Source: an uncultured Acetobacter sp. (GTDB lineage: Bacteria; Pseudomonadota; Alphaproteobacteria; RF32; CAG-239). From it: DNA of 26,392 bases. Location of the stretch: NCBI GenBank assembly GCA_964410935.1, contig CAYPIZ010000003.1, forward strand, positions 1-26,392, read 5' to 3'. Positions 18,572 to 22,201 of the stretch are shown piece by piece. Each line of letters begins with the position of its first letter. Position 1 is the first letter of the stretch. Made by a program: the position numbers and the translations under genes. A model generated the notes under the pieces. That model was not told the DNA's origin, ran no database searches, and saw nothing but the letters and a program-made list of their open reading frames with translations.

Positions 18572-19465
18572 TTAGTGATTTCGCTCTAAAAAGTAATCCG
18601 ATAAGAGCTTAAGATTTTGAGCGGATTGCCCAAAAGGAGATAATAAATCTTTGGCTTCATCAATCAGATTTTGTGCCTTTTCGCGGGCTTTTGTCACCCC
18701 ATACAGACTGACAAAATTCATTTTATGCTGAGCTTTGTCTTTATTTAGCGTCTTTCCCATCAATTTTTCATCACCCTCTACATCCAAAATATCGTCGGTG
18801 ATTTGAAAAGCAATACCAATATTCCGGGAAAACTTTATCAATATATTGCGTTCTTCAGAGGTTGCCTTTCCTAAAACAGCCCCTGCCTCACAAGGATACC
18901 TCAACAAACACCCTGTTTTAAGGGCTTCAGTATGGCTAATAATTAATTCAGGATCGGCAAAACTTTGATGAGAATCGGTGTACAAATCCAACACCTGCCC
19001 TGCGACCATACCTTCCAATGCACCGGCTGCGCGTGCCAGTAGAAGGGTTAATTCTACTTTCATATTATCGGGAATTAGCGCCGTATTTAATATTTCAAAA
19101 CCGTAAGTCAGTAACCCGTCACCGGCCAGAATTGCCGTTGCTTCATCAAAAGCTTTATGGCATGTGGGCTTTCCCCGACGGAGATCATCATTATCCATGG
19201 CAGGTAAATCATCATGGATCAGCGAATAAGTATGTATCATCTCCAAAGAAGCCGCTACCGGAAGAGCTTTTTCATATTCTACCCCAAACAGCCCTGCCGT
19301 TTCATGCAATAAAAACGGACGAAGCCTCTTTCCCCCGTTCATCAAGCTATAATGCATTGCTTGCAAAGCACGATGCTCCGGAGCTTCTGAATGGGGAAAA
19401 TATTTTTCTATCTGCCGATTAAATCGCTCGGCATACGTCTTTAAGATTGTTTCTATCTCAGACAT
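18572..19465 (-). CDS. ispA: Polyprenyl diphosphate (farnesyl diphosphate) synthase
   Basis: Start ATG 19465 preferred. GGKRLRP, HTYSLIHDDLPAMDNDDLRRGKPT (FARM), GQVLD, KTG, FQITDDILD (SARM). Follows xseB. Confidence 0.94.
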   Translation of the reverse strand: MSEIETILKTYAERFNRQIEKYFPHSEAPEHRALQAMHYSLMNGGKRLRPFLLHETAGLFGVEYEKALPVAASLEMIHTYSLIHDDLPAMDNDDLRRGKPTCHKAFDEATAILAGDGLLTYGFEILNTALIPDNMKVELTLLLARAAGALEGMVAGQVLDLYTDSHQSFADPELIISHTEALKTGCLLRYPCEAGAVLGKATSEERNILIKFSRNIGIAFQITDDILDVEGDEKLMGKTLNKDKAQHKMNFVSLYGVTKAREKAQNLIDEAKDLLSPFGQSAQNLKLLSDYFLERNH

Positions 19466-19484
19466 CGTCCGTCGTCCTGTTATA

Positions 19485-19739
19485 CTAGGCTTCCACATTA
19501 TCCAGCGGTGTTGTTGAAAGGCTACCGTCTTTGGCTATTTCTATTTTTTCCACCTTTAACTGAGCCGCAGAAAGTTTATCGGTACAGAATTTTTTGAGAG
19601 CTATCGCACGTTCATACGCACTGACAGCATCATCTAGTTTTATTCTGCCTGTTTCCAACTCTCTCACAATATTTTCCAACTGAGAAAGAGCTTCTTCAAA
19701 ACTTAACTCTTCAATTTTAGTTTCTTCAGTCATCATCAT
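19485..19739 (-). CDS. xseB: Exodeoxyribonuclease VII small subunit
   Basis: LSFEEALSQLENIVRELETGRIKLDDAVSAYERA..L..C..KL..A.LKV. Exact start among three tandem ATGs is uncertain. Confidence 0.93.
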   Translation of the reverse strand: MMMTEETKIEELSFEEALSQLENIVRELETGRIKLDDAVSAYERAIALKKFCTDKLSAAQLKVEKIEIAKDGSLSTTPLDNVEA

Positions 19740-19742
19740 CCC

Positions 19743-21164
19743 CTATAAACGAATTAATTCTATCTCTTTATTCGGTAAATCTTTGACACCAATACCGAGG
19801 GCTGCAAGCCTATCCCTGATTTCATCAGACTTTGTCCAATCTTTGGCTGCTCTGGCTGCTGCTCTGGCTTCCAGCAAAGCAGAAATTTCCGGCGTTACTT
19901 CAATTTTTTCCGCTTTTTTAGGGGCTACTTCTGCTAAAAACAGCTGGAGTACGCTATCTACATGCAAAATGAATGCTAATTTTAATGCGGCAGATTTTTG
20001 ATTATCTTTCACAACGCCCCACATATAAGATAAGGCCATAGGTGTTTTCAAATCATCAAAAAGATATGCATTGAATTCATCTTTTAATTTGGCTAAATCG
20101 TCAACTTCCGAAGACGTTAGTTCCTTATTTACAGCTTCGGCTTTAAATTCTGAAACATAATCAACCAAATTATCATAGGCTTTCTTGGCAGAGTCCATTG
20201 CTTCTTCGGAAAAGATTGCAGAACTTCTATAATGCGACGTTAAGCAAAAATATTTGTAATGAGCCGGCAAGTAGCCCTTTTCTACCAAGGTATCCAAAGT
20301 TAAGAAGCCACCTTTAGATTTGCTCATCTTCCCGGATTTGTTATTTAAAAACTCTGCATGCACCCAATAGTTAACCCATTCGTGTCCAAGACGTGCCTCA
20401 CTTTGAGCAATTTCGTTTTCATGGTGAACAGGAATATGGTCAATACCACCGCAGTGAATATCTATTCTTTCGCCTAAATATTTTGTTGCCATCGTAGAGC
20501 ATTCAATATGCCACCCAGGATACCCCCTACCCCACGGACTATCCCATTGCAATATTTGATTTTCAAACTTAGATGAGGTGAACCATAAAACAAAATCTGA
20601 AGGGTTGCGCTTATTCATATCCTGTTCCGTACGGGCACCATGTTTTAAATCATCCCTATTTTGCCCGGAGAGGCTGCCGTAACGGGGAAACTTGGCTGTA
20701 TCAAAATAAACATTACCATTGGAAATATAAGCAAATCCCTTTTCTTCCAAAACTTTGACAAAGTCTATCATATCTGCAATATGTTCCGTCGCACGGCAAA
20801 CAATTGTCGGCCGTTTAAGACCGAGGGCCTTGGTGTGACGGAAAAAAGCATCTTCATACATGCGTGCGATATCCAGAACGCTTTTCTTTTCACGCTCCGC
20901 AGCTACCTGCATTTTATCTTCCCCTTCATCACCATCACTGGTTAGATGGCCGACATCCGTAATATTCATAACGTGCTTTACCTTATAACCGGCCAGCCGC
21001 AATGTATTCGCAAGCAGATCTTCAAAAATATATGTACGCAAATTCCCGATGTGTGCATAGTTATATACCGTCGGCCCACAACAATACATCGTCACAGCCG
21101 GTGGATTTAGCGGTTTGAACTCATCTTTGTTACGGGTTTTGGTATTGTATAAATAAACACTCAT
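19743..21164 (-). CDS. cysS: Cysteine--tRNA ligase
   Basis: YCCGPTVYNYAHIGN (HIGH), NITDVGH, PGWHIECS, HCGGIDH..VHHENEIAQSE, KMSKS, SDEIRDRL. Confidence 0.98.
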   Translation of the reverse strand: MSVYLYNTKTRNKDEFKPLNPPAVTMYCCGPTVYNYAHIGNLRTYIFEDLLANTLRLAGYKVKHVMNITDVGHLTSDGDEGEDKMQVAAEREKKSVLDIARMYEDAFFRHTKALGLKRPTIVCRATEHIADMIDFVKVLEEKGFAYISNGNVYFDTAKFPRYGSLSGQNRDDLKHGARTEQDMNKRNPSDFVLWFTSSKFENQILQWDSPWGRGYPGWHIECSTMATKYLGERIDIHCGGIDHIPVHHENEIAQSEARLGHEWVNYWVHAEFLNNKSGKMSKSKGGFLTLDTLVEKGYLPAHYKYFCLTSHYRSSAIFSEEAMDSAKKAYDNLVDYVSEFKAEAVNKELTSSEVDDLAKLKDEFNAYLFDDLKTPMALSYMWGVVKDNQKSAALKLAFILHVDSVLQLFLAEVAPKKAEKIEVTPEISALLEARAAARAAKDWTKSDEIRDRLAALGIGVKDLPNKEIELIRL

Positions 21165-21185
21165 GGTTTTATCCTTTACTTGGTT

Positions 21186-21216
21186 AAAAAAACAGGCAGT
21201 CTATTGCTGACTGCCT
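21186..21216 (-). terminator. Attenuator terminator (3:4 hairpin) in the cysS leader
   Basis: On the - strand AGGCAGUC (21216-21209), loop AGCAAUA, GACUGCCU (21201-21194), G, UUUUUUU (21192-21186). It ends 22 nt before the cysS ATG. Confidence 0.9.
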
Positions 21217-21251
21217 CGTGATTTTTGATATAAAAAAGCATCTCCGGCAGT
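21210..21251 (-). promoter_or_regulatory. Predicted antiterminator (2:3 pairing) of the cysS attenuator
   Basis: ACUGCC (21251-21246), starting 6 nt after the leader stop, is complementary to GGCAGU (21215-21210) in the terminator 5' arm, so the two structures are mutually exclusive. Confidence 0.72.
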
Positions 21252-21256
21252 AGAAC

Positions 21257-21304
21257 TCAGAAGTTTTGACAGCAACAGCAGATGTTTTTCATATTTAGAT
21301 TCAT
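21257..21304 (-). CDS. Cys-rich attenuator leader peptide MNLNMKNICCCCQNF (proposed cysS leader)
   Basis: RBS GAGGA (21315-21311), 6-nt spacer, then ATG AAT CTA AAT ATG AAA AAC ATC TGC TGT TGC TGT CAA AAC TTC TGA. In-frame alternative ATGs at 21310 and 21292. Confidence 0.88.
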   Translation of the reverse strand: MNLNMKNICCCCQNF

Positions 21305-21327
21305 TTTCATTCCTCTTTCTTTGGTGG

Positions 21328-21356
21328 ATTTTGGCGTGATTTTTAATTCTTGTCAA
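21328..21356 (-). promoter_or_regulatory. Putative sigma70 promoter driving the cysS leader
   Basis: TTGACA (21356-21351)-N17-CAAAAT (21333-21328). Predicted start near 21321, just ahead of the leader RBS. Confidence 0.65.
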
Positions 21357-21382
21357 GAAAATATCTTTTATTTCCGCATTTT

Positions 21383-22201
21383 TTACTGCAAAAAGACGCG
21401 TCGCAGTTCTTTAAGTCCGTCTTCATCCGTCAAGTTGACTGTCAATGCGCTGATTGTGATATAATCCTTAATCTTAACATTATCTGCCGGAAAATCTTTC
21501 TTTTGCCGTTTACTTTCATCTTGAAGGAGGGCTTTCTTACTTAAATGACGATTTTCCACCGTTCCTTTAACAAAACGGCGGCTACCTAAACGACAAACTT
21601 CAATTCCTTTAAGTTTGGTTTCATCAATATTCGGAAAATTGATATTAACCAACGTATCAGCCGTACAACTGGTGTGACAGACCTTCACAATGATATTTGT
21701 TAAGTATTTTTTGACAATTTGCCAATGGCAGACCGTACCTCGTTCCACCAGTTGCGACACGGCAATTGAGGGAATTCCGTACATAATCCCTTCCATAGCT
21801 GCACCAATCGTTCCGGAATAAGTTACATCATCGGCAATATTACGCCCGTTATTAATACCTGAAATAATTAAATCCGGATAATGATCTTTTAAAATCATAT
21901 TGAGGGCAATACGAATACAATCTGAGGGCGTCCCATCCACCGCATAATGTCTCGCCGATATTTCGGTGATATCTTCGGGAAAATCCTCTATATTGTGATG
22001 TCCTAACATCTTTTTCAGTTTTTGTGGCGTTAGGGCATGTCCGGTACCGCTTTTTTCTTCTTTAGGGGCAACTACCCACACATCAGGACAGATACCCTTA
22101 ATCAATGTTTCTAAGAGCACAATCCCTTCAGAGGCAATGCCGTCATCATTAGAAAGCAAGATACGGCACTGTCCAAGATCATCTATCGGTTTAAAACGCA
22201 T
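21383..22201 (-). CDS. surE: 5'/3'-nucleotidase SurE
   Basis: ILLSNDDG, APKEEKSGTGHALT, VDGTPSDC, DLIISGIN.G.N, TYSGTIGAAMEG. Confidence 0.92.
   Translation of the reverse strand: MRFKPIDDLGQCRILLSNDDGIASEGIVLLETLIKGICPDVWVVAPKEEKSGTGHALTPQKLKKMLGHHNIEDFPEDITEISARHYAVDGTPSDCIRIALNMILKDHYPDLIISGINNGRNIADDVTYSGTIGAAMEGIMYGIPSIAVSQLVERGTVCHWQIVKKYLTNIIVKVCHTSCTADTLVNINFPNIDETKLKGIEVCRLGSRRFVKGTVENRHLSKKALLQDESKRQKKDFPADNVKIKDYITISALTVNLTDEDGLKELRRVFLQ

Follow-up and report, generated by a model that had tools for sequence, protein, structure and literature searches.

A genus-restricted cysteine-codon leader predicted to attenuate transcription of a xenologous cysS gene in uncultured gut Alphaproteobacteria

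Organization of the cysS locus

The window, i.e., the whole stretch of 26,392 nucleotides analysed, belongs to a metagenome-assembled genome (MAG) of 1.1 Mb, which is 93% complete and has a G+C content of 41%. The gene encoding cysteine--tRNA ligase, cysS, lies on the minus strand, is preceded by surE and is followed by xseB and ispA. The features of the locus are reported in Table 1. In this gene array, xseB starts 3 nt past the cysS stop codon, and the ispA reading frame begins before xseB ends (18572-19739, minus strand).

Table 1 Features of the cysS locus in the window, listed in the direction of transcription
Feature	Position	Strand	Basis
Sigma-70-type promoter: TTGACA, 17-nt spacer, CAAAAT	21356-21351, 21333-21328	-	promoter scan, 10/12 matches
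Shine-Dalgarno (SD) sequence of the leader ORF, GAGGA	21311..21315	-	sequence
Leader ORF, 15 codons and stop, MNLNMKNICCCCQNF*	21257..21304	-	ATG 21304, TGA 21259-21257
Segment 1, protector 5' strand, AUAUGAAAAACAUCU; pairing extends into the Cys codons	21280..21294	-	minimum-free-energy (MFE) fold, ORF shuffles, compensatory changes
Sensor codons, four tandem Cys (TGC TGT TGC TGT)	21269..21280	-	sequence
Segment 2, whole	21228..21251	-	folds and pair counts
Segment 2, ACUGCC, antiterminator 5' strand	21251-21246	-	begins at the 6th nt past the leader stop
Segment 2, AGAUGCUUUUUUAUAU, protector 3' strand	21243-21228	-	MFE fold
Segment 3, AGGCAGUC, terminator 5' arm and antiterminator partner of ACUGCC	21209..21216	-	pair counts
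Segment 4, terminator 3' arm GACUGCCU (21201-21194), then G and U7 (21192-21186)	21186..21201	-	terminator and RNAalifold
cysS, cysteine--tRNA ligase, 473 aa, ATG 21164	19743..21164	-	TIGR00435, 465 bits
xseB, directly after cysS	19485-19739	-	sequence identification
ispA, after xseB	18572-19498	-	sequence identification

A first-pass annotation had read the region upstream of cysS as a leader-peptide transcription attenuator with a poly-Cys sensor. All the elements it listed, i.e., the promoter, the GAGGA sequence, the 15-codon ORF with its Cys codons, the ACUGCC segment, and the 8-bp terminator with its U7 tract, are present on the minus strand between positions 21356 and 21186. The terminator is formed by an 8-bp stem (AGGCAGUC/GACUGCCU) and a 7-nt loop at 21216-21194. 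The U-tract is separated from the cysS ATG by 21 nt, instead of the 22 nt originally counted. Another ATG in the same frame, at 21310, lies immediately next to the SD sequence of the leader ORF; the start codon conserved in the alignment of 35 relatives is that at 21304.

The genome carries one other run of at least four Cys codons, located within a 32-codon stop-to-stop frame on another contig (C53), which is not followed by a terminator-like T-run. Because a second such run occurs, a run of four Cys codons is not, by itself, beyond chance in a genome of 1.1 Mb. The cysS leader is the only short, non-intragenic ORF of the genome in which an SD sequence and an ATG are combined with a homopolymeric run and a following terminator, and no further Cys leader, or leader featuring other homopolymeric runs, held up in this genome. 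The one candidate, the ORF MVVVLTVC on contig C47, was discarded as a leader, as it lies within the 3'-terminal part of a gene, the terminator of which it shares. As for cysteine metabolism genes, cysK is located directly behind its upstream gene and has no leader; in this assembly, which is incomplete, no cysE gene was detected.

Conservation of the leader within the genus

A first search yielded 23 complete cysS loci from the genus of the window, and an upstream short ORF featuring a Cys run and followed by a terminator was found in all of them. Two additional searches brought the collection to 35 distinct leader sequences. Loci nearly identical to that of the window come from MAGs titled 'Alphaproteobacteria bacterium', obtained from deer, yak, sheep, buffalo and human-associated gut samples. 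These titles agree with the proteobacterial setting assumed in the first-pass annotation, and the genome appears to belong to the gut lineage named RF32 in GTDB. The whole design, which includes the leader ORF, the Cys run, the post-stop segment and the terminator, is kept in 35/35 loci. All 35 also feature a promoter made of TTGACA or TTGTCA, a 17-nt spacer and a CAAAnT-like hexamer, located 16-32 nt 5' of the leader ATG; in the window, the distance between the -10 hexamer and the ATG is 23 nt. The ATG column of the alignment is invariant and is preceded by a purine-rich GAGG, AAGG or GGA sequence.

Leader peptides range from 14 to 16 residues and contain 2-5 tandem Cys codons, in which TGT and TGC vary synonymously. 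The spacing of the downstream elements is constrained. The last Cys codon is separated from the leader stop by 2-4 codons (exactly 3 in 30 of the 35 sequences), 4-7 nt separate the stop from a GCUGCC-type segment in all 35, and a further 27-35 nt separate this segment from the 5' arm of the terminator. Residues located N-terminally to the Cys run vary widely among species, and selection therefore appears to act on codons and RNA rather than on the peptide. The presence of just two tandem Cys codons in four relatives counts against the attenuator reading.

The gene located upstream of the element varies among loci, and the order cysS-xseB-ispA is kept in 31/35. In about a third of the relatives (12/35 loci), cysS and xseB are separated by approximately 700 additional nt.

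The good SD sequence, the conserved start codon and the conserved Cys run would also be expected if the ORF encoded a functional Cys-rich micropeptide (involved, for example, in metal or redox binding), the hairpin being merely its terminator and cysS being transcribed from elsewhere. We regard this explanation as very improbable. The peptide is not conserved outside the Cys run, and the run itself ranges in length from 2 to 5. Only 24-41 nt, with no promoter-like site, are found between the terminator and the cysS ATG in the 35 sequences, and the element invariably accompanies cysS, whichever gene lies upstream. Moreover, in 35/35 sequences the post-stop segment can base-pair with the terminator's 5' arm, a feature that would be needless for a simple terminator.

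Alternative RNA helices in the leader transcript

Base pairing was measured in a 152-column alignment of the 35 related sequences (A2), and control values were obtained by sliding the pairing partners. The pair counts speak for three helices that exclude one another, which the leader RNA may form by pairing segments 1 and 2 (protector), 2 and 3 (antiterminator), or 3 and 4 (terminator), and compensatory changes are found in each of them. The terminator is the consensus helix in the RNAalifold prediction; 92.8% of its cells are paired, compared with 29-69% in slid controls, and compensatory changes occur at 4 pairs. Pairing of the antiterminator involves 100% of 206 cells, compared with 13-62% in the controls, and compensatory changes occur at 2 pairs. 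These consist of a G-C to A-U change in the window and a C-G to U-A change in four relatives. Against the attenuator reading, the core of the antiterminator is highly conserved, its covariation amounts to few independent events (2 pairs, 5 cells), and the sequences are related.

The protector, which had been put forward in the first-pass annotation as a weaker option, corresponds to the MFE structure of the window leader. When the helix is kept in a fixed register, 65.8% of its cells are paired, compared with 32-45% in slid controls, and compensatory changes are found at 20 of the 26 pairs. Pairing reaches 87% in the sub-helix formed by the Cys codons with the GCUGCC-GG segment. The region spanning from the leader ATG to just 5' of the terminator was also folded and compared with dinucleotide shuffles of the ORF, and a mean z-score of -2.13 was obtained, with 25 of the 35 sequences falling below -1.64.

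The effect of translating ribosomes was modelled by masked folding, in which the footprint is represented by forbidding pairing up to 12 nt past the occupied codon. With the ribosome placed at the stop codon, or with no ribosome, the MFE structure is the terminator in 35/35 sequences. With the ribosome placed on the Cys codons of an RNA that stops short of segment 4, the pairing partner of segment 3 is the post-stop segment in 35/35. When the stalled ribosome is placed on the full-length RNA, the antiterminator is the MFE structure in 9/35 sequences, and the terminator is in 26/35 and in the window. The outer stem of the antiterminator consists of only 6 bp enclosing a 30-nt interior. Since the terminator remains the equilibrium MFE structure of most sequences in the presence of a stalled ribosome, the proposed switch must be kinetic, as in classical attenuators. 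This need for kinetic switching is the main soft spot of the attenuator model.

Proposed mechanism

On this comparative evidence, the element is very likely a classical ribosome-mediated leader-peptide transcription attenuator, which would sense charged tRNA-Cys and control the sole cysS gene, as well as the probably co-transcribed xseB and ispA genes. The attenuator may consequently also set the transcript levels of the small subunit of exonuclease VII (xseB) and of farnesyl-diphosphate synthase (ispA). The cognate logic speaks for the attenuator reading, as the regulated gene charges tRNA-Cys, and one tRNA-Cys(GCA) and one cysS gene were found in the genome. Among the sequencing runs found, one small RNA run contains related sequence, as assembled contigs that span a short stretch of cysS and do not reach the leader; the other runs are of DNA.

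From the elements observed, their conservation and spacing, and a pairing potential marked by compensatory changes, we infer leader translation, ribosome stalling, read-through and a kinetic order of folding as follows. Transcription would start from the conserved promoter, and the 15-codon leader would be translated while the RNA is being synthesized. When Cys-tRNA(Cys) is plentiful, the ribosome would reach the UGA stop codon, and its footprint would mask ACUGCC, which lies 6 nt after the stop. Segment 3 would then remain available for pairing with segment 4, the terminator would form, and RNA polymerase would stop at the U7 tract. When Cys-tRNA(Cys) is scarce, the ribosome would stall on the four Cys codons and melt the protector, leaving ACUGCC exposed. 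The exposed ACUGCC would pair with the GGCAGU sequence of segment 3 before segment 4 is made; no terminator would form, and cysS would be transcribed. If the leader is not translated, the long hairpin formed by segments 1 and 2 would sequester segment 2, and the terminator would form.

This mechanism, in which ACUGCC competes for the 5' arm of the terminator, is in essence that of the first-pass annotation, and conservation, geometry, masked folding and compensatory changes agree with it. Among the observations on which the annotation had proposed to judge it, a run of 2-5 tandem Cys codons was found in 35/35 relatives, and compensatory changes were found at 4 terminator and 2 antiterminator pairs. 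Masking the ribosome at either the Cys codons (with the RNA ending before segment 4) or the stop codon led to the expected pairings in 35/35 sequences.

The same structural logic would react to a ribosome stalled anywhere in the final third of the ORF, and the equilibrium fold favours termination. The leader might thus couple cysS to general translation, or to a signal of the Rho or ppGpp kind, rather than to the charging of tRNA-Cys, any slowing of the ribosome leading to read-through. We consider such coupling unlikely, though less so than the micropeptide. The sole coding feature common to 35/35 leaders is the tandem Cys run, which is kept at a fixed distance from the stop codon and is encoded by synonymous TGT and TGC codons, and the regulated gene is that of the cognate synthetase. 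Read as an attenuator responding to tRNA-Cys charging, the element provides a compact example of a synthetase gene that would regulate itself by ribosome stalling on cognate codons in uncultured Alphaproteobacteria of the animal gut. The 15-codon leader gene is missed by standard annotation.

Distribution of the element

A covariance model (R1) comprising the protector and the terminator was built from alignment A2 and used to search related genomes. In 13/13 sampled genomes of the genus, R1 found exactly one strong match per genome (76-109 bits), always at cysS. Among 151 genomes of the family, matches are confined to the genus of the window, and nothing else scored above 44 bits. Weak matches in other genera (up to 44 bits) were discarded, as those inspected correspond to ordinary terminators at gene ends and lack a Cys ORF. 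No match at E <= 1e-4 was obtained in 150 other alphaproteobacterial families.

An Rfam scan of positions 20900-21700, carried out with E values up to 10, revealed no T-box, riboswitch or known leader family; only chance-level matches to STnc370 and snoRNAs (15-22 bits) were obtained in this region. Short ORFs with tandem Cys codons were detected in 4 of the cysS upstream regions sampled from 60 other alphaproteobacterial families (loci L188, L177, L168 and L202).

Origin of cysS and of the leader

Two kinds of cysS genes are found within the family, one of alphaproteobacterial type and one xenologous. Most genera carry the native gene, the product of which is approximately 40% identical to that of the window; it is located directly behind the apparent 3' end of gltX and has no leader. 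The xenologous gene is carried by the genus of the window and by some members of three other genera. In a quick, unrooted FastTree phylogeny of 109 cysS sequences, which does not give the direction of transfer, the xenologous genes form one clade (support 100), set apart from the native alphaproteobacterial genes. This clade groups with Clostridiaceae (support 96), and Spirochaetota sequences are found further out. Xenologous cysS genes and the nearest Clostridiaceae and Spirochaetota genes exhibit 52-58% identity (loci L115-L122, L054 and L124-L129).

In the nine loci from the other genera, the xenolog is preceded by a promoter and a short untranslated leader, with neither an upstream ORF (uORF) nor a terminator. 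Leader-less xenologous genes from sister genera (L115-L120) share a conserved 5' region, located 40-70 nt upstream of cysS, right after the promoter; the order of elements is TTGAC, GTGCTAAATAAT, GGTTTTTATACAGTT and AAGGA.

A different poly-Cys leader occurs approximately 150-250 nt 5' of cysS in five Clostridium loci (L057, L062, L064, L098 and L101). The encoded peptides start with MCRCCCCC, MCICCCCC or MFMCCCCC and are preceded by a strong SD sequence. Each leader comprises an apparent antiterminator of its own and a GCUACAG/CUGUGGC terminator bearing a U-run; a T-box was not detected within 1.5 kb. All five loci belong to one cysS subclade nested deep in the Clostridiaceae, and none of them is matched by R1. 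At Rfam gathering scores, no T-box was detected in the 20 loci carrying the closest non-alphaproteobacterial cysS genes.

Transfer of the leader together with the xenologous cysS gene was rejected as the likelier history, as the closest cysS loci outside the family have no R1 match. Co-transfer is also disfavoured by the deep nesting of the Clostridium leaders and by the other xenolog lineages of the family, which have no uORF. Since sister lineages carry the same xenolog without a leader, the attenuator probably arose within the genus of the window, and the simplest history is a gain in the ancestor of the genus, independent of the Clostridium one. In full, we think it somewhat more probable than its contrary that the attenuator was born de novo in one genus of gut Alphaproteobacteria, after the native gltX-linked cysS gene had been replaced by a xenolog, nearest to those of Clostridiaceae, inserted before xseB-ispA. 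The leader would thus be convergent with the Cys leaders of the Clostridium subclade and of Rhodobacterales. If this is true, this genus, together with the sister lineages lacking the leader, would represent a natural series for the assembly of a complete three-hairpin attenuator on a newly acquired gene.

Comparison with known regulatory systems

We regard the leader as a real element, with a mechanism well supported by comparative evidence, which is restricted to one genus and probably evolved independently. The experimentally established analogue for a synthetase is the pheM leader and the attenuator of pheST in Escherichia coli. Both systems feature a synthetase operon, a leader peptide rich in cognate codons, an intrinsic terminator, and feedback of the charging level on transcription, which in the window is predicted. 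They differ in the amino acid and in the leader sequence, and pheST has been experimentally tested, whereas the window element is a prediction. The arrangement of the 1:2, 2:3 and 3:4 hairpins, the location of the regulatory codons in segment 1, and the masking of segment 2 by a ribosome at the stop codon are as in the trpL, hisL, leuL, thrL and pheL leaders. In contrast to these, the window leader would control a synthetase gene rather than a biosynthetic operon, and, with 15 codons, it is very short. Leader-peptide attenuation of the classical type is rarely specific for cysteine.

In Firmicutes, cysS is controlled by T-box riboswitches. The signal (tRNA-Cys charging), the target (cysS) and the output (terminator versus antiterminator) are alike, but T-boxes sense uncharged tRNA directly and without translation, and none was found in the window region scanned with E values up to 10.

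Cys-rich short ORFs located upstream of cysteine metabolism genes have been reported in other bacteria. In mycobacteria, mutational analysis revealed that polycysteine leaderless short ORFs control downstream genes according to cysteine, acting on leaderless mRNAs via access to the ribosome-binding site (Canestrari et al. 2020, 10.1101/834739). Cys leader peptides lacking recognisable terminators have been predicted in Actinobacteria (Seliverstov et al. 2005, PMC1262725). In these ORFs, as in the window leader, a Cys run in the final part of a short upstream ORF would serve as the sensor via ribosome stalling. They differ from it in being leaderless, in relying on ribosome-binding-site access or having no terminator, and in preceding genes other than cysS.

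Following the mycobacterial precedent, in which the ribosome-binding site is sequestered (10.1101/834739), the alternative folds of the window leader might affect mRNA stability or the accessibility of the cysS ribosome-binding site rather than transcription. Such translational control is hardly probable here, as the cysS SD sequence (AAGGA) is located downstream of the hairpin and the U-tract and is unpaired in every predicted fold. Moreover, the hairpin has the canonical form of an intrinsic terminator, and 5-7 U residues follow it in nearly all relatives. The window leader also features an SD sequence of its own, 23 nt between the -10 hexamer and the ATG, a terminator, and a cysS SD sequence lying outside the hairpins, which sets it apart from the mycobacterial type.

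The closest counterpart is the uORFC-8-2 motif, 145 examples of which were described in Rhodobacterales, exclusively upstream of cysS (Brewer et al. 2021, RNA Biol 18:2417, PMC8632094). The Cys codons of the motif, two in tandem, lie within its first stem. The motif also features a conserved AUG and a second stem that corresponds to an intrinsic terminator with a U-run, and was interpreted by the authors as ribosome-mediated attenuation providing feedback on Cys-tRNA (PMC8632094). The first-pass annotation knew of no described attenuator combining a poly-Cys leader and an intrinsic terminator for a proteobacterial cysS gene; this claim to novelty does not stand, given uORFC-8-2 (PMC8632094).

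The two leaders share the regulated gene, the bacterial class, a uORF with tandem Cys codons, two stems with a 3' U-run, and the proposed logic, and both are computational predictions. They differ in the order in which they occur, uORFC-8-2 being found in Rhodobacterales, and in the sensor, which consists of two Cys codons at approximately positions 14-15 in uORFC-8-2 and of 2-5 Cys codons at positions 7-13 of a 14-16-aa peptide in the genus of the window. This comparison is based on the published description of the motif; the window leader has no Rfam match, and R1 has none in the 150 other alphaproteobacterial families. Because the window leader is found in one genus only, is associated with a xenologous cysS gene, and is missing in sister genera, its origin is probably separate from that of uORFC-8-2.

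No new mechanism is revealed. The design is already described for cysS in Rhodobacterales, and the residual interest lies in the probable assembly of an attenuator on a recently acquired xenologous synthetase gene. The occurrence of Cys-codon leaders in the genus of the window, in the Rhodobacterales motif and in Clostridium suggests that such leaders arose repeatedly on cysS. Repeated origin would bear on the ease with which attenuators evolve, as well as on the annotation of small ORFs.

Among the upstream regions sampled from other alphaproteobacterial families, that of L188 (G323:C73:18885-19315) carries a short ORF, MMSARIAQIIITAGNTCCCRSKICA, with three tandem Cys codons, which ends approximately 130 nt before a cysS gene of native alphaproteobacterial type. 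No clear U-tract terminator was seen downstream of this ORF, which may belong to the uORFC-8-2-like leaders already published.
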